This document shows, in pieces, positions 37,864 through 51,951 of a stretch of 55,270 nucleotides of DNA (position 1 is the stretch's first letter; each line of letters begins with the position of its first letter). A program made the position numbers and the translations under genes. The notes beneath the pieces are model-generated. The model was not told the DNA's origin. It was given only the letters and a program-made list of their open reading frames with translations, and did no database searches. The stretch covers positions 682,001 through 737,270 of the forward strand of contig JABVCE010000020.1 in assembly GCA_014905635.1 (NCBI GenBank), in the 5' to 3' direction. This DNA is from Scenedesmus sp. PABB004 (lineage: Eukaryota).

Positions 37864-40650
37864 GCAGGGAGCGTGGGTGGGACATCGACGTCGTCGTGCC
37901 CGTGCCGGACGGCTCGCGCCCCGCCGCAATCGAGGTGCGCGCGCGCTCGGCGGCGCGGCTCCGGCGCGGCGCAGCGGGCCGCGCGCGGCGCGCGGCGCGC
38001 GGCGCGCGGCTCCGGCGCGGCGCGGGCCGCAGGGGCTGCTGGGCCTCGCCCGGCGCACGCCTGCTGCCGCGCCGCGCCGCGCGCCAGCCCCTCAGGGCAA
38101 ACCGGACCCCTCGCCGCCGAGCCCCCCCTCCCCCAAAACCCGCCCCTGCCCCTCCCAACCCCTCCTAAACCCTGAAACCCTGCCCTGCAGGTGTCGCACG
38201 AGCTCGCGCTGCCGTACCGCGAGGGCCTCGTCAAGAACCGCTACGTCGGCCGCACCTTCATCATGCCCGACCAGGTGACTTAACCCCGGGGTCCACAGGG
38301 TTTAGGGGGTTGAGGGCGGCGCCAGGGTTTAGGGGTTGAGGAGCTGCGGGGGCGGCGCGCGGCGTGCGTTGCGAGGGGGGGGTCTGGCCCAGGCACTCGC
38401 ACTGCAAGGGCTCTAAACCTTAGAGCGCCGTGGGGCGGTTCTGGTGCAGCGACTAGCTCTTTTGTCTTGCGGCCACGTGAAGCCTCAAGTGCCAGTCGCT
38501 GGGCCAGGACTGTCCCACGGCACTGCAAGCCTTCAGGCGCGAGTGCGCGCTGACCATGGCCAAGACGGCGCCCTGGTCCGGGCACTCGCACTCGAAGGCT
38601 TGAAGGCTTGAGCGCCAGGGGGCAGGCCGCGCGGACCGCGCGCGCGCACACACCCGCCGGCGCGCCGCCCACATGGGAGCTCTCGTCTAGCGTGTTGGAG
38701 TCGCCAACCCGCTGGACCAGGGCTCCCCTCGTGGGCGGCTCGCCGGCTGGGGCCGCGCCCACCCGCGGCGTGCGAGCCCCTGCCACCCCGCCAACCCCGC
38801 CAACCCCTCACCCCCAGCGCCCCGCCCTGGACCCCCGCCCCAAAACCCTGCCCCCCTAAACCCCCGCACCCCGCCCCTAGACCCCGCCGCGCCCGCCCTT
38901 AAACCCCGCCGCGCCCTTAAACCCCCGCCCGCCGCAGCGCATGCGCGAGATGAGCGTGCGGCGCAAGCTCAACGCGATGCCCGCCGTGTTTGAGGGCAAG
39001 GCGGTGCTGCTGATCGACGACTCGATCGTGCGCGGGACGACGATGGCGCAGATCGTAGACATGGTCCGCCGCGCGGGCGCCAAGAAGGTGCGGCCTGGGG
39101 GTTGGACCCGTCGCGGGGTTCAGGGGGCGCGCGGGGCGGGGCTGTCGTGCCGGGGCGCCGGCGCGGGGCGGGGGGCGGCGCGCGGCGGCGGGGCGCGCGC
39201 GCTGCCCCTCCCCACCCCTCGCCCCTCCCACGCCCCCCCTCCGCCCTCCCCGCCCGACCCCGCTAAACCCCGTGCCCCGCGCGCCGCTAAACCCCGCTAA
39301 ACCCCGCTGCACCCCGCAGGTGTACCTCGCGAGCAGCGCGCCGCCGGTGCGCTTCCCCAACGTGTACGGCGTGGACATGCCCAACCGCAAGGAGTTTGTG
39401 GCGGACGGCCTCACCGAGGAGCAGGTGGGGCTCAGGGCTGAGGGCTCATGGTTTAGGGTTTAGGGTTGAGAGGGCTGAGGGCTCAAGGCGGGCGCTGCGG
39501 GGGGTTGTTGTTGGTCGGGGCGGTGAGGGCCGACGGCTGGTTGCGGGCGGCGACGGGCGCGGCACGCGCGGGGCTCGGGGCTCGCATGGCTGTGCTTGGC
39601 CGCTGGCCAGGCACAACCTTGAGCCCCGAGCCCCGCCCGTGCCGGCGCCCGCGCCCCCGGGGCGGCGACCGCCGCGGCCCGCGCGCGCCGCGCGCGCCCC
39701 GCGGCGCCGCTGCCTGCCGCGCGCGCGCGACGCCCCCAGGGGCTGCAGGCGGCGCGGGGCTCGGGGGTCCGGGTCTTGGGGTGTGTGGGGTAGAGCCCGC
39801 CAACCCCAAAACCCTGACCCCCGAGCCCCGCGCCGCCGCCGACGCCCGCGCGCCCGGCCGGGGAACGGCGGCTCGGGGGCCGACCGCGGCGCGGGGGAGC
39901 GCGGCGGGCGGGGGAGGTCGCGTCGGGGGCGGCAGCGCGGGGCTCGGGGGTCCGGGTCTTGGGGTGCGCTAGGCAGAGCCCGCCAACCCCAAAACCCTGA
40001 GCCCCGAGCCCCGTGCCGCTGCCCAGACCCGCGCCCCGGCCGGGGATGGGGCCGCCGGCCGCGCGCCCCCGCCGCGCGCCCCCGCCCCCTACACAACCCC
40101 TCCCCGCCCCGCACCCCCGCCCCTCTTCACGCCCGCGCCCCGCCGCTAAACCCCGCGCCCCGCCCCACCCCGCAAAACCCCGCAAAACCCCGCCAGGTGT
40201 GCGAGGTGCTGCGCGCGGACGGGCTGGTGTATCAGGACGTGGACGACCTGCTCGCCGTGGGCGCGGAGCTAAACCCCAGCATCACCCGGTTTGACGCCGC
40301 CTGCTTCGACGGGCACTACGTCACCGGTGCGCGGCGGCGGCGGCGGCGGCGACGGCGGTTGCTGCGCCCGCTGCGCCCGCTGCGGCGGTGCTGGCGCTGC
40401 TGCGCCCGCTGCGGCTGCTGCGCCCGCCGCGGCTGCTGTGTGCGTGTGTGCGTGTGTGCGTGCGTGCGTGCGTGGCGACGACGGGTTGAGGGGCTGCGCG
40501 GGCGACTGACCCCCTCCGCTCCGGCTCCTCCCCCCCCCCCCCAAACCAGGCGACGTGGACGCGGCGTACCTGGAGGAGCTGGAGAGCAGCGGCCGCGGCG
40601 CCAAGCGCACGCGCGCGGGGCGCAAGACGAGCCTCGTCGGCGCGCGCTGA
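34006..40650 (+). CDS. purF: Amidophosphoribosyltransferase with an N-terminal transit peptide
   Basis: [101 protein letters not shown] and YGVDMP. Confidence 0.97.
36481..36921. repeat. Intronic tandem array of ~180-190-bp units, each with a ~70-nt hairpin
   Basis: gggcgccgggcgcgct...agcgcgcccggcgccc at 36481-36551, 36669-36741 and 36851-36921; the two spacers are also similar to each other. Confidence 0.88.
39560..40022. repeat. Intronic array of three related hairpins, ~185-bp period
   Basis: ggggctcggg...cccgagcccc arms at ~39570, ~39756 and ~39939. The middle one pairs 32 of 34 bp. Confidence 0.88.
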
Positions 40651-41333: not shown

Positions 41334-42784
41334 TCAGCTGTTGAACCAGTCAAAGAAGAGCAGCAGCAGCGCCGCGGTGAGCAGCAGCACGAGCATGTAG
41401 CGCCGCCCGCTGCGGTTGACTGCGATCGTCCGCCGCAGCTGCGCGTTGCCCGCGGCCAGGTGCCCGCTCGCCTCGACCGCGTTTGAATACAGCGTTTCAA
41501 TTGCCTCTGCCTGCGCCATGACGGCGGTGGAGAGCATCTGATTGATGGTGCTGATCTCGCGCACCGTGCGCTCCACGCCGCGCGCCTGCGCGGCCGCGGT
41601 GCGCAGCTCCTCCTGCGGCGCCGCGGCAGCGGCGCGGCCGCTGCGCGTGAGGCGCGCGGCGCGCGGCGCAGCGCGCGCGAGCCCGCGACGGCGAGCGCGC
41701 GCGGCCGGCGGGCGCGGCGTGGCGCGCCCTCACCAGCAGCGCGCGCGTCGCGTCCTGCTGCTGCACCTGCTGCAGCCCGCCGCCGCCGCCGCCGCCGTCC
41801 GAGCTGCGCCGCAGCCGCTGCTGCTGTTCCTGCTCCTGCTGCTGCCAGGCGGGCTGCTGCGCTGCGTGCGCCTTGCGGCGCGCGCGCAGGTCGCGCGCGA
41901 GGGACTGCTGGTACCGTACTGCGCGGGCCTTGTCAAAGCCCCCGCCACGCGCTGCAGCTGCTCCACCAGCACCAGCACCTGCGGACGCGTGCCCGCCCGC
42001 GGCGGCGGCGGCGACGGCGGCCAGGCGGGGCCGCGTCGGTGGGGCCGCGCAGGCAGGCCCGCGGCGCCGGCAGGCCGGCGCGGCGGCGGCCGCGGCGGCA
42101 GCGCCGGCGCACCGCGCCATGAAGGTGCGCCGCGCTCTGCTGGTTGATGAGCGGCGGGCCGCCCCCGGGCGGGTCCTGCGCGGCGAGCACGCCGTCCTTG
42201 AGCGCGTCCAGGTGCGCCGTGATGCCCCGCACCGCGCCGCCGACGCGCTCCTCGACGGCGTCCTTCGCCGCCTCCGACAGCTTGCCTGCGCCGCCGCCAG
42301 GCGCGCGCGCAGGCGCGTCGGTCCGGCGCGGCCGCGGCCGCCCGGCAGCAAACGCCGTGCGCAGCTGCGCGGCCCGCTGCGCCGCGCCCGCCCGGCGCGT
42401 CCGCCGCGCCTGTGCTGAGGTAGTCTCGCTTGTTGGTCGCAATGAAATCCCGCAGCTCCGCGATGGACGCTGCCTGCGCCGGAAGCGGGCGCCCTCGCGC
42501 GCTGCGCGCGGGGCCGCGGGCGCGGCGCACGGGCCGCGGCCGGCGCGCGCCGCCGCACCACGCCCGCCGCCACGGTCGCAAACTGCGACCGCTCGCGCGC
42601 CGGCTTGAGCAGTATGGCCGCCTTGGCGCGCCGCGCGTCCTCCTGCGGGCGCGCGGCGCGGCGCTGGGCGGCGGCGGCGCGCGGCAGCGCAGCGGCGCCG
42701 TCGCCGCGGGCCTCTCACTGTGCTGAGCTCCAGCGCCGCGCACGCCGCGTCCACCGCGCCCGCCCAGTCGGGAGTGCGGTCCAT
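41334..42784 (-). CDS. SYP81: Qa-SNARE syntaxin-18/SYP81
   Basis: N-terminal MDRT, LRDFIATNKRDYL, AHLHG..VLVL, SNARE motif VERTVREISTINQMLSTAVMAQ and a C-terminal TM segment ending LLFFDWFNS. One frameshift in a G run at ~41940. Confidence 0.9.
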
Positions 42785-43150
42785 GCGGGCGGGCGGGCGC
42801 TGCCGCCGCGGCGGCCGGCGGTTGCGGGGCGGCGCGGCGCGGCGGTGCGGCGCTGCTGCTGGCGCAGGGACCGACTCGGGCGGCTGGGCGGGCGTGCGGG
42901 GCGGGCGGGGCTGCGCGGTTAGGAGAGCGAGCGCGCAGGATGAGGAAAGCTGGATGCGGCGCGTGGGCGGCGCGGTTCAACGTTCGTGCGGCGCTGCTGC
43001 GGGCGCCCCGGTGCGCTGCGTGGGCGTGGCCGCGGCCGGCGCACTCCATTCAGCAGGAGAGCGATCGCACGTTCGTTCTTGCTCGGCCACCCGCAGCCGG
43101 GTTCCGGCTTTCTCTGCGCGGCGGCACCGGCCGCAGCGGCTGTGGCAGCG

Positions 43151-44682
43151 ATGCGGGGCCTGGCGCCGGCGCGGGCGCGCAGCGCGGTAGCGGCGCCGAC
43201 GTCGGCGCGCCTGCATGCAGCGCGTCCATGTGTCGGTCGCCGGCGGCGCGGCGGGCTCTGCGCCGCCGCCGGCGGTGGCGGCAGCAGCGGAGCGGCGCCT
43301 GCCCCCGCCACGGCGCTGCGCGAGTGGCACGACGTCGACGCCCCGCTGCTATGGCAGGCGCGGGCGGCGCTGGAGCCGCCTGGCCGCCTGGGGCGCCAGC
43401 CCGGGCGCCGCAGCAGGCGCGCGCGCCGCCCCTCGCGCAGCGGCGAGCGCTCGCCCGCGCACGCGGCGCGCCGCCGCTGCAGGGCGACGAGGACGCGGCG
43501 CTGTCGCCGGAGTCGCCGCTGGCCGCCCTGCCGGCGCCCTGGAAGGTGCAATGCGCGCTGGCGCGCCAGCTCGCTCGCTCGCGCTCTCTGCTCGCAGCGC
43601 CGCCGCGTGCGACGAGCGAACGAGGAGCTCCACCCCTCCTGTGACCGCCGCCGCCGCCGCCGCCCCGGCAGGTCATGTTGCTGAGTGATGGCTCCGTCAC
43701 GCGCCACCTGCAGCTGCTCACCGGGCAGCTGGTGTCTGTGGTGCGCGGCGCGGCGGGCTGGCGCGCTGCCCCGCACTCGCACTCACCGCGTGTTCCAGCC
43801 TGGCTTGTGGCTCATCGTGCTCCCTCCCTGCCCCGTCCACCGATCACCCGCAGGAGTGCCTCAGCATGGACCTTCTCAGCGGCGCGGCGGCGCGCCACGC
43901 GCCGCCGCCCAAGGCCGCCGCCATCCCAGGGCCGCTCGTGCAGCGCCAGGTGCGCGCCGCGCGTGCGCCGCCCCCTGCCCGCGCACGCGCCCGCGCTGCG
44001 CCCTCCCTCTCCCCCGAACCGCCGCGCGCCCGCGTGCCCGCCGCGCCGCGGCGCAGGTCGTGCTCTGGTCGGCGGGCGGCGCAGCGCCGCGCGCGCCGCT
44101 CGTGTACGCTGCGAGCTGGTGGGCGGCGGGCAGCGTGGACCGATACCTGGCCGACACGGCGCTGCCCATCTGGGTCAGCCTCGCGCGGGGCCACCTCGAG
44201 CTGTACCGAGAGATTCAAACGGTGCGCGGCGGCGGCGCGGCGGCTCACCACTGGGCCGCGGCGAGTCGGCGGGGCAGGGCGCCACGCCCGCGGCGCGGGG
44301 CCCCGCCGCGCGAAGTCCAACCCCGCGCCGCCGCCGCCGCCGCCGCCGCCGCGCGGCGCGGCCAGGTGTCGCTCGGGCACAGCGCGGAGCTCGAGGGCGC
44401 GCTGCGCTGCGCGGGGCCATTCTGGGGGCGGCAGTACCTTTTCTGGCACGACGGCGCGCCGCTGACGCTGATCCACGAGGTCTTCAGCAACGACCTCGCC
44501 GCGTGGCTCGGCCCGCAGGACCAGCAGCGGGCGGGGGCCGCCGCGGCGGCGGCGGCGGCCGCGCTGCTGCGCGCGCCGGCGGCCGCGGCGCTGGCCGCGG
44601 GCGCGGCGCAGCAGGCGCAGCAGGCGGAGCAGGCGCAGCAGGCGGAGCAGGCGCAGCAGCAGCAGCAGCAGGTGCAGGAGCA

Positions 44683-44728
<46 letters not shown>

Positions 44729-46352
44729 CAGCAGGAGCAGGAGCAGCAGCAGCAGCAGCAGCGGGTCCCGGAGCCGCAGCCGGCGCAGCAGAGGTCGGGG
44801 CAGCAGCCGGAGCAGCAGCAGCCCGCGTCGAGCGCCCTGGACCTGTGCTGCTTCACCGTGATCGTTGATGACATCGTGCTGCCCGGCGGCGCGACGGCGA
44901 TGGAGCAGCTCGGCGGCGGCGGCCCGCAGTCGTTGTTCGGCTTTGCCCTGGTCAGCGCCGCGCTGTCGCGCCCCGCGCGCGTCGGCCTGGCCGCGGGCGT
45001 CGGCGCCGACCTGCCGGGCAGCTGCCGGGTGAGGGCCGCGGCCGCATGTGCGCGGCAGCCGCCGCCGCGGCCGCCGCCGCTGCCGCAGCAGCGCTCGTGC
45101 GGCCGGTCTCCGGCCTGCAACCACCTCCGCCGCCCGCCCGCCCGCTGGCGCCGCCGCCAGGCCTGGCTGGACGCCCTGGGCGTCGACACGGCCGGCCTCG
45201 CCGTGGGGGAGCTCCCCACGCCGCGCGCGTGGCAGCTGTTCGAGCCGGACGGCCGGCGCACGCAGGTCCGGCCGCGCCGGCGCGGGCGCAGCCACGCGCG
45301 CCGCGCCCTGCGGCCGCCGACCACCGCCGCCGCCGAACCCCGCCGCCAAAGGTTTGGCGGGTGCCCGAGGGCGACGCGTTGTACGCGCAGCTGCGCCCTC
45401 CGTTTGAACGCCTGCCGCGTCAATTCAAACAGTCGGCCAACTACCACCTCGGCATCCACGCCGGCCACCCGCCGATGCGGCTGCTCACAGCGCTGCGCGA
45501 CGCGGCGCACGCGCGCGGCGGTGCGTGTGCAGCGCACGCGCGCGCGCGCGCGCGCGCGCCGCCGCAGCCGGCCCCGCCCTCCACGCCTGAACCGCGCCCG
45601 CGCTGAACCGCCACGCCGCCACGCCGCCCCCGGGGCCGCAGGGCTGCTGTCGGTCGAGCCCTACACCTCCTGCGAGGCGCCGCCGCGGCGCGAGGAGCTG
45701 CGCGAGCTGCTGGGCCTCGCTGACGTGTTCAGCCCAAACGAGGCAGAGGCGGCGAGGTGTGTGCGTGCGTGTGTGCGTGTGTGTGTGGGGGGGGGGGAGG
45801 CATGGTGCATGTGCCGCGCCCTGTTGGCGCGCGCTCCCGGCGCAGCCGACGTGCGCCGCGCGCCGCGCCGCGCCGCGCCGCGCCCGCAGCATCGTCGGGC
45901 CGGGCAGCCCCGAGGCGCTCGTCCAGCGGCTGATCAACGCGGGCGCGCGGCTGGTGCTGCTGCGCATGGGCGCCGCGGGCGTGCTGGCGGCGTGCGCGGC
46001 GAGCGGCGAGACCGCGCAGGTGCGTGCTGGCGGCGCGCGCGGCGCGGCTGCAGGCGCGCGCTGCGCCGCGCGGTCGCCGACGCGCCGCCGCCCCCCGCAG
46101 GTCCCCGCAGTGCCGGGCACGCGCGTCGTGGACGTCTGCGGCTGCGGCAACGCCGCGTGCGGCGGCTTTGTCGCGGCGCGCGCCGCCGGGCGCGGCCTCG
46201 CCGACGCGGCGGCCTGGGCGTGCGTCGCCGGCAGCGTCATGGCCGAGTGGCAGGGCTTGCCGCCCGCGCAGCTCGACGGCCTGCTGCCGGCCGCCGCGGC
46301 CAAGCGCGCGGCGCTCACGGCGGCGGCCGAGGGCCCCGCGAGCCGGCGCTGA
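43151..46352 (+). CDS. Fusion: transit peptide + Ycf21/DUF98 chorismate-lyase-like domain + polyQ linker + PfkB (ribokinase-family) domain
   Basis: WK|VMLLSDGSVTRHLQLLTG, LVYAASWW, PIWVSL..HLELYREI and FWGRQYLFWHDGAPLTLIHEVFS, then in the same exon IVDDIV..LGGGG. Later exons give DVFSPNEAEA, LRMGAAG and VVDVCGCGNA. Confidence 0.85.
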
Positions 46353-46589
46353 GCCCTGGTAACGCGGCGCGCTGACGCCGTGCGCCCCCAGCTGCGCTCC
46401 CGTGGCCGGCTCCGCACTCCACACTCACCACCGCGGCTCTCGACGTTCTCGGCCCCTCGCCGCGCGCGCCGGGCTTAGGTGGTGCCGTCGCCGCTGCTGT
46501 CGCCGCCGCCCCGCCTGAGCGCCGCTCCGACACAGCAGCAGCGCCGGGCGGCCGTGACAACAGGGCCCGGATCGGCGCGGCGGGCCGCC

Positions 46590-51660
<5,071 letters not shown>

Positions 51661-51946
51661 GAGCACGGCACCGCCACGGCGGCGCCGCGCTGGCGCGAGG
51701 GCGACGCCGCCGCGCTGGAAGTGAGGCCGGCGCCGCGCTGGGCGTGAGCCAGCGCCCTTCTGGAAGTGCGGACGGCGGCGGCCCACTGGGCGTGAGGCAG
51801 CAGACGGCGGCGCGCCGCCCGCGCTCCAGCACGCCGGCGCCGGCGCAGCGGGGCGCGCGGGCGCGTGTGCCCGCGCAGCGGCGGCGTCGCGGTGGTCGGC
51901 GCGCCGTGTCCGTTGCCTGCCTGCCCGCTCAGCGCGCGCGCGCGCC

Positions 51947-51951
51947 TGTAA
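51947..51951 (+). promoter_or_regulatory. TGTAA poly(A) signal of RPT6
   Basis: TGTAA about 290 bp after the stop. A convergent TGTAA on - at 52043-52047 would serve the neighbouring gene. Confidence 0.6.

Follow-up and report, generated by a model that had tools for sequence, protein, structure and literature searches.

The gene described here lies in a stretch of 55,270 nucleotides of Scenedesmus sp. PABB004 (contig JABVCE010000020.1, positions 682,001 to 737,270), which is referred to below as the window and whose own numbering is used for all coordinates. As read from the assembled DNA, this gene (43151–46352, + strand) joins a chorismate lyase-like domain of the DUF98 (Ycf21) family and a PfkB-fold domain in one predicted polypeptide. 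Each family is known by itself; their combination would be new and has been encountered a single time. On balance, we lean toward the interpretation that the fusion is real, young, and lineage-specific, and that its halves act independently and are merely tethered to each other. In this view, a single nuclear gene of a chlorophycean-like green alga with very GC-rich DNA would give rise to one polypeptide composed, in this order, of an Ala/Arg-rich presequence, a complete DUF98/Ycf21 domain of the cyanobacterial chorismate lyase type, a linker of Gln, Ala, and Glu that would be disordered, and a PfkB-fold domain, likewise complete, from a clade with a GxGN motif.

Continuity of the reading frame across the linker

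The gene model was built by reading the sequence directly, locating conserved peptides in three frames, and checking the splice sites. The ATG at 43151 and the TGA stop codon at 46350–46352 agree exactly with the span given in an earlier first-pass annotation of the same DNA. The G+C content around the gene is ∼78–83% (80% for the window as a whole). Exons 2–10 (43672–46352) splice to 1764 nucleotides, i.e. 587 codons and a stop codon in a single frame, and all eight introns have GT-AG borders and lengths of 81–144 nucleotides. The end of the DUF98 domain, the linker, and the start of the PfkB-like domain are located together in exon 5, which is delimited by an AG acceptor and a GT donor at 44366–45028. 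The first-pass annotation had assigned these three elements to one exon, with an Ala/Gln linker of ∼100 residues; its coordinates proved exact, the linker comprises 106 residues, and one frame runs through all three parts.

In the first part of exon 5 (44366–44518; GPFWGRQY...LTLIHEVFSNDLAAWLGPQ), the match to the DUF98 profile PF01947 reaches position 149 of 149, and the blastp alignment to the closest orthologue, P0001, ends at spliced residue 161. The middle part (44519–44836, 318 nucleotides) encodes the linker, which is composed of 48 Gln, 27 Ala, 9 Glu, 6 Pro, and 16 other residues. The CAGs form several blocks that are split by non-repeat codons, all of them (48/48) are in the exon frame, and the GC content at third codon positions is 1.0. 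The last part (44837–45028; LDLCCFTVIVDDIVLPGG...LGGGGPQ) opens the PfkB-like domain. Chlorophycean homologues of this domain begin with a Met that is located 0–7 residues ahead of the FT[LV]I[IV]DD strand, whereas the window has no start codon there. No stop codon is present between 44470 and 44858 in any of the three + strand frames, and no ATG is present in any frame of the linker. Exon 5 has a single in-frame ATG, at 44900, and this is preceded by the first PfkB strand FTVIVDDIVLPGG (FTVIVDD), which is itself conserved. An intron inside the linker is unlikely, as the GTs at 44672, 44765, and 44794 are not accompanied by the C-rich 3′ ends of the eight introns of the gene.

The stop-free state of the exon is weak evidence when taken on its own. 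Among 2186 sampled window frames of 663 nucleotides, 459 (21%) are open, 292 of 2200 stretches of 309 nucleotides (13%) lack a stop in each of the three frames, and at 43685–46375 one frame of 896 codons is free of stops through exons and introns. Since open frames are so common in the window, coding cannot be deduced from the length of an open reading frame (ORF) in this genome, and the argument of the first-pass annotation that a stop-free exon speaks against a merge of two gene models is weak. The conclusion drawn from it stands, because the absence of a stop and of an ATG around the linker, the CAG phase, and the conserved residues on both sides lead to the same result. Furthermore, the 318 nucleotides between the two regions of homology are too few for a 3′ untranslated region, a promoter, and a 5′ untranslated region. 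As far as the assembled DNA is concerned, the locus is a fusion rather than a gene-model merge.

The same observations bear on whether the locus could give rise to separate DUF98 and PfkB products through alternative starts (including non-AUG starts), splicing, or polyadenylation, with the fused ORF as a minor or absent product. Each CAG of the linker is a potential splice acceptor, for instance for an alternative 5′ exon, and the three GTs mentioned above are potential donors, but the linker is purine-rich, unlike the C-rich intron ends of the gene. As every + strand frame is open from 44470 to 44858, a protein that consists of DUF98 only would have nowhere to terminate before 44859, and the missing ATGs leave the PfkB half without a conventional start in any linker frame. 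A precedent for multiple products exists in green algae, in which closely packed ORFs are expressed as polycistronic mRNAs; each of these ORFs retains its own start and stop (PMC7896298), and these are missing in the window. We regard separate products as very unlikely.

The chorismate lyase-like half

The N-terminal half of the protein matches PF01947 (Rv2949c-like chorismate pyruvate-lyase, formerly DUF98) over the whole profile, with positions 1–149 covered across exons 2–5. The read-through of exons 4–6 gave an E-value of 8.8e-26 and 91 bits against a cut-off of 22, and a DUF98 profile that was built from homologues matched residues 1–173 of the spliced protein with an E-value of 3e-77. 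The domain begins in exon 2 (43672–43740; VMLLSDGSVTRHLQLLTG...), which is bounded by splice sites and in which profile positions 1–21 are matched with an E-value of 4.1e-5. It continues through exon 3 (43854–43949), supported by splice sites and homology, and exon 4 (44057–44221), which contains the VYAASWW and PIW motifs and is supported by PF01947, splice sites, and conserved columns, and it ends in the first part of exon 5.

Spliced residues 1–161 are 67.7% identical to residues 88–247 of P0001, a stand-alone DUF98 protein of 256 residues that is encoded by a complete transcript ORF of Flechtneria rotunda, another Sphaeropleales alga. P0001 itself exceeds the threshold of NF037993, the NCBIfam equivalog for cyanobacterial chorismate lyase (192.4 bits, cut-off 175). 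In an alignment of 24 homologues, the spliced protein retains 15/15 invariant and 25/25 nearly invariant DUF98 columns. Among solved structures, the algal DUF98 profile matches one, PDB 2nwi, with an E-value of 2.7e-10. Taken together, the DUF98 half is complete and looks constrained, with no sign of a decaying remnant, and it would be expected to split chorismate into 4-hydroxybenzoate and pyruvate. In Synechocystis, the chorismate lyase that serves plastoquinone synthesis is given as the related protein Sll1797 (PMC12998194, pointing to Pfaff et al. 2014).

The PfkB-like half and the GxGN clade

The C-terminal half begins in the last part of exon 5 and extends over exon 6 (45161–45265; TPRAWQ and DGRRTQ motifs; splice sites, homology, and conserved columns), exon 7 (45352–45520; splice sites and homology), exon 8 (45642–45756; FSPNEAEA; Pfam scan and splice sites), exon 9 (45890–46019; splice sites), and exon 10 (46101–46352), which encodes the C-terminal part and the TGA. 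The PfkB profile PF00294 matches exon 10 alone with an E-value of 8.5e-6 and a score equal to the curated cut-off, 25.8 bits, and orthologues that are 66% identical to this half reach values down to 4.9e-27 against the same profile. A profile of the PfkB clade that was built from homologues matches residues 266–580 of the spliced protein with an E-value of 1.3e-137. The profile searches that the first-pass annotation had proposed as a check, with a missing DUF98 match named as grounds for doubt, hence recovered both domains.

Spliced residues 268–579 are 66.2% identical to residues 1–317 of P0006, and the identity to P0153 is 65.9%. In the alignment of 24 homologues, 49/50 invariant PfkB columns are kept, the one change being Gly to Ala, together with 33/35 nearly invariant columns. 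The clade motifs FxLIxDD, LGGGGPQ, TPRAWQ, DGRRTQ, FSPN..EA, and G[AC]GNA.CG are all present. Like the DUF98 half, the PfkB half is thus a complete domain that looks constrained, and nothing in it resembles a remnant in decay.

The feature that sets this half apart is the GCGN sequence at 46140–46151, which occupies the place of GxGD. The Asp of GxGD, which we take to be the catalytic base in ribokinase-family kinases, has no counterpart in the window protein; in an alignment to PDB 4e3a, the Asp of TGAGD is matched by the Asn. The replacement is characteristic of the clade: the Asn of G[AC]GN is found in 107 of the 109 motif-bearing homologues, one of the other two having Asp and one being a doubtful match. 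The nearest solved structures are remote, the best being 4e3a itself (E-value of 8e-11), and none of the NCBIfam equivalogs came near its cut-off for this clade.

GxGN proteins are found in Chlorophyta, and those of prokaryotes come almost exclusively from Chloroflexota. A Pfam scan of 15 Chloroflexota loci placed them in operons with Indigoidine_A (pseudouridine-5′-phosphate glycosidase, PsuG), inosine-uridine nucleoside hydrolases, and canonical PfkB kinases, and further genes of these operons encode SIS and BtpA proteins, an amidohydrolase, and transporters. In a larger set of 80 Chloroflexota loci, the glycosidase was present in 21, a nucleoside hydrolase in 44, and either of them in 51. 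A DUF98 gene was found within 8 kb of the Chloroflexota PfkB gene at 0 of the 80 loci, using the same profile that recovered every positive control. By its gene neighborhoods, the GxGN clade looks like a group of nucleoside- or ribosyl-directed kinase-like proteins, and nothing in these data ties it to chorismate or 4-hydroxybenzoate. The PfkB half of the window protein would probably bind or phosphorylate a nucleoside or ribosyl compound.

Several PfkB-clade fragments from other algae or plants (P0076, P0083, P0094, P0141, P0130, P0115, and P0030) carry N-terminal extensions of 35–90 residues that resemble organelle presequences. In chlorophycean orthologues nothing precedes the domain, and the protein may therefore reside in different compartments in different lineages. 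The GxGN clade is sizeable and uncharacterized and has an odd taxonomic spread, and this side result may outweigh the fusion itself.

Search for the fusion in other organisms

With the exon 4–6 read-through as the query, HMMER was run exhaustively against 1.84 billion cluster representatives and returned 553 matches. When the best 150 of these were re-scored with the domain profiles, 108 contained DUF98 only, 42 contained PfkB only, and none contained both. Both profiles were matched by none of the 286 homologues collected in total, which leaves the spliced protein of the window as the sole match to both. PF01947 was absent from the best 120 of 415 PfkB homologues, and PfkB was absent from the two longer DUF98 homologues, both of which have RRM domains, although this search for longer proteins is a weak negative. 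The flanks of 11 algal metagenome DUF98 loci, three of them with 10 kb of downstream sequence, contained no PfkB gene. In two Volvocales, Chlamydomonas incerta and Volvox reticuliferus, the DUF98 and PfkB genes are located on different contigs. With regard to synteny in Sphaeropleales, no locus-tagged DUF98 protein from Tetradesmus, Raphidocelis, Monoraphidium, or Scenedesmus was present among the 30 clusters that were looked up.

Two other searches with the read-through query were less productive: a word-based homologue search was dominated by poly-Gln candidates and gave 2 matches, and a search of the ESM Atlas gave no usable match. No description of the DUF98-linker-PfkB architecture was found in the literature searched. 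This is in agreement with the first-pass annotation, whose author knew of no such description. The search of other algae for the fusion that it had called for brought up no second example among the 286 homologues, the 11 algal metagenome loci, or the 80 bacterial loci.

Genomic neighborhood of the fusion gene

Downstream of the fusion gene, on the same strand, the window contains the gene for the 26S proteasome ATPase Rpt6 (46590–51951; homology and Pfam), which is a neighbor and not part of the fusion. The spacer between the PfkB stop and the Rpt6 ATG at 46590 is 237 nucleotides (46353–46589). The same PfkB-then-Rpt6 tandem is found in other Sphaeropleales, in which the two genes have been merged in gene models (P0154 and P0155 of Tetradesmus obliquus, P0158 of Monoraphidium neglectum, and P0156 from eukprot), and the PfkB protein of Raphidocelis carries the name of a proteasome subunit. 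The recurrence of this tandem indicates that the PfkB half is in its ancestral place and that DUF98 is the newcomer or the newly joined neighbor. Between 43151 and 51951, the sole + strand copy of TGTAA, the algal poly(A) signal, is at 51947, after Rpt6; the number of TGTAA matches (5 against 3.1 expected) is not significant. The fusion gene might share a transcript with Rpt6. On the other side of the gene, a Pfam search of three long minus-strand frames (41497–43049) gave no family match. Short interstitial tandem arrays of telomere-repeat-like CCCTAAACCC units are present at 38853–38933 and 49629–49711, the second of them inside the Rpt6 span.

In a contig of a metagenome green alga (L003, 2000–5730), Rpt6 on the minus strand is arranged head-to-head with DUF98 on the plus strand at a distance of ∼700 nucleotides, and no PfkB gene is present in the 8 kb of the contig. 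DUF98, PfkB, and Rpt6 are neighbors in more than one arrangement.

This recurrence is one of the observations that would fit a functional coupling of the two halves, in the sense of a Rosetta-stone relationship. The PfkB half would then act on, or be regulated by, the product or ligand of the lyase, or the lyase fold would sense a small molecule on behalf of the kinase-like domain, and the plastid would contain an enzyme that is bifunctional or regulated by a metabolite. In favor of this, the two halves share one frame and are both intact and conserved, and the three genes recur as neighbors both as PfkB–Rpt6 in Sphaeropleales and as Rpt6 divergent from DUF98 in the metagenome contig. The chorismate-lyase fold also occurs in GntR/HutC regulators, where it forms the ligand-binding (UTRA) domain, and this can be put forward for sensing. 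Against this stand the bacterial PfkB loci, in which PsuG or a nucleoside hydrolase accompanies the gene in 51 of 80 cases and DUF98 in none, the different contigs in the two Volvocales, the lack of the fusion in any other organism among the homologues searched, and the low-complexity linker, whose 106 residues suggest no fixed interface between the domains. We know of no algal pathway that leads from 4-hydroxybenzoate to a ribokinase-like step, and none was found in the literature searched. Coupling is, in our estimate, quite unlikely, and the proposal of the first-pass annotation that the protein is a bifunctional or metabolite-regulated 4-hydroxybenzoate synthase is not borne out, given the GxGN motif of the PfkB half, the bacterial loci, and the Volvocales.

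A more specific form of this idea, which we rate as highly improbable, is that the fusion is expressed and marks an unrecognized link, in which a plastid lyase-fold domain supplies the GxGN domain with 4-hydroxybenzoate or another aromatic acid, or senses such an acid on its behalf; the bacterial relatives of the GxGN domain are encoded next to the C-glycoside enzyme PsuG and nucleoside hydrolases. If this were true, a ribosylated aromatic compound might be formed or salvaged, or a nucleoside-salvage step might be gated by a ligand, and the fusion would provide the first functional handle on the GxGN PfkB clade of green algae and Chloroflexota.

Frame break in exon 1 and reliability of the junction

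In contrast to the single frame of exons 2–10, exon 1 contains a change of frame. Its 5′ part (43151–43378, + strand) comprises the ATG, a presequence of ∼55 residues that is rich in Ala and Arg, is free of acidic residues, and precedes the conserved Trp, and the conserved WHDVDAPLLW...ALEP motif, which is in frame with the ATG. The counterpart of this motif in P0001 is DWHDVTQPLLW...ALEP, and tblastn placed residues 53–75 of P0001 at 43316–43378. The next conserved piece, SPESPLAALPAPWK, which ends at 43545 (LPAPWK at 43528–43545), lies in a different frame, in the 3′ part of the exon (43483–43545, GDEDAALSPESPLAALPAPWK), and is followed by a GT donor at 43546. The frame changes within the separating GC-rich, low-complexity stretch (43379–43482), which overlaps a tandem-repeat row (43409–43477) and has no counterpart in homologues; its 104 nucleotides are not a multiple of three. 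A GT-AG intron as the cause was ruled out, as there is no GT in 43340–43500 and hence none in the stretch itself. The break is either a one-nucleotide indel of the assembly or a real frameshift that cuts off the presequence, and it bears both on plastid targeting and on the trust that can be placed in single bases of the record. The Ala/Arg-rich N-terminus makes plastid targeting plausible, although the break clouds this.

The exon 1 break is also one of several observations that weigh against the interpretation we favor, as it implies base-level assembly errors or a damaged N-terminus. The junction lies in a CAG/GCG repeat of a type that is abundant in the window and prone to misjoining or collapse during assembly; of the 166 tandem-repeat rows in the window, three are at the junction (44539–44599, 44608–44762, and 44661–44818). 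An in-frame join would arise by chance in one case out of three, with open frames being as common (21%) as described above. The fusion has been seen in a single sequence. A search for sequencing runs listed no RNA run and one DNA run, from a metagenome (0.08 of sampled words). In this run, an exact contig of 256 nucleotides was found at 43674–43924, over exons 2 and 3, and the other matches were short, of low identity, and to repeats; the linker was not bridged, and the run speaks neither for nor against the fusion. Elsewhere in the genome, either gene may have a second copy that is not fused. Finally, GCGN lacks the catalytic Asp, which makes kinase activity of the PfkB half uncertain.

Several of these points would be accounted for if two loci, a DUF98 gene whose tail is of low complexity and a PfkB–Rpt6 locus with an upstream repeat, had been joined or collapsed at shared CAG/GCG repeats during assembly, in which case the alga would have no fused gene of this kind. 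In addition to the repeat tract at the junction, the chance of an in-frame join, the indel-like error in exon 1 of the same gene, and the uniqueness of the record, such an artefact would be in line with the Ser/Ala/Gln-rich tails of 40–70 residues in the DUF98 proteins of some relatives (P0082, P0018, and P0144). It would, however, require that the join removed both the DUF98 stop, which is absent in every frame, and the PfkB ATG exactly. Moreover, the CAG blocks keep the frame of both flanking domains even across the non-repeat segments RVPEPQPA, RSG, and PE, and the repeat is imperfect and, at ∼155 nucleotides, short for a long-read misjoin. An assembly artefact is thus considered unlikely.

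Proposed origin and significance of the fusion

Under the interpretation we favor, a lineage-specific fusion of recent origin, a DUF98 gene would have come to adjoin the upstream side of the conserved PfkB–Rpt6 pair recently in this lineage. Loss of the stop codon from the DUF98 gene and of the start codon from the PfkB gene would have followed, and the gap between them would have been filled by in-frame GCN/CAG codon repeats, a type of sequence that is abundant in this genome. The main effect of the fusion may be the shared expression of the two domains and also their shared targeting, the latter only if exon 1 is intact. The probable independence of the halves is supported by the absence of DUF98 near the 80 Chloroflexota PfkB genes and by C. 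incerta and V. reticuliferus, each of which has the two genes on separate contigs. Of this picture, the identity of the domains, the unbroken frame, and the conservation are shown by the data; expression as a single protein, the activities, the targeting, and the independence of the halves are inferred.

If the fusion is real, it represents a domain architecture that is absent from the collections of ∼15 billion proteins searched, and it would provide an example of how GC-rich green algae make fusions between neighboring genes by means of codon-repeat linkers. Its value for pathway discovery would be limited, because no independent evidence connects the two halves, and it is unsuitable as a Rosetta-stone argument for 4-hydroxybenzoate metabolism.

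Comparison with related proteins and known fusions

When compared with Sll1797/PlqC (Ycf21 type) and the stand-alone green-algal orthologues, the N-terminal half of the window protein is a full-length family member by profile. The difference lies in what follows it. In about 70 homologues whose C-terminal ends were compared, leaving aside two gene models that run into an RRM protein, stand-alone DUF98 proteins end 17–119 residues past the LT[LV]I[HY]EVF sequence (median near 26), whereas the frame of the window continues through the linker into a second domain. Other multi-domain models with DUF98 exist, in which it is followed by RRM (P0264, the ‘chorismate lyase isoform B’ of Chlorella sorokiniana, and P0151) or by Myb (P0060). 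They share with the window an N-terminal DUF98 and a downstream domain, but the partner domains differ. At a Chlorella-type locus (L011, 9900–10400), an in-frame stop is present right past ...LGPQRQH, so that the DUF98-RRM form needs splicing across genes or is itself a model merge; the window has no such stop.

The C-terminal half has the GCGN motif in common with the stand-alone GxGN proteins of Chlorophyta (CHLRE_02g088300v5 and P0153, a Scenedesmus ‘Ribokinase-like protein’) and with the ‘sugar/nucleoside kinase’ proteins of ∼300 residues from Chloroflexota. With canonical ribokinase, adenosine kinase, and fructokinase it shares the PfkB fold, as judged by profile, a GG motif near the N-terminus, and the G-x-G anion-hole motif. 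These canonical kinases have the Asp of GAGD where the window clade, which lacks a close solved structure, has Asn.

PfkB domains are also found in known fusions, such as the HldE kinase with an adenylyltransferase, 5-dehydro-2-deoxygluconokinase with an aldolase, and PfkB with SIS. These are widespread and their partners share one pathway, whereas the fusion in the window has been seen once, and its chorismate-lyase partner has no known pathway in common with the PfkB half. In its general layout, a PfkB domain combined with a second enzyme domain, the window protein nevertheless resembles them.

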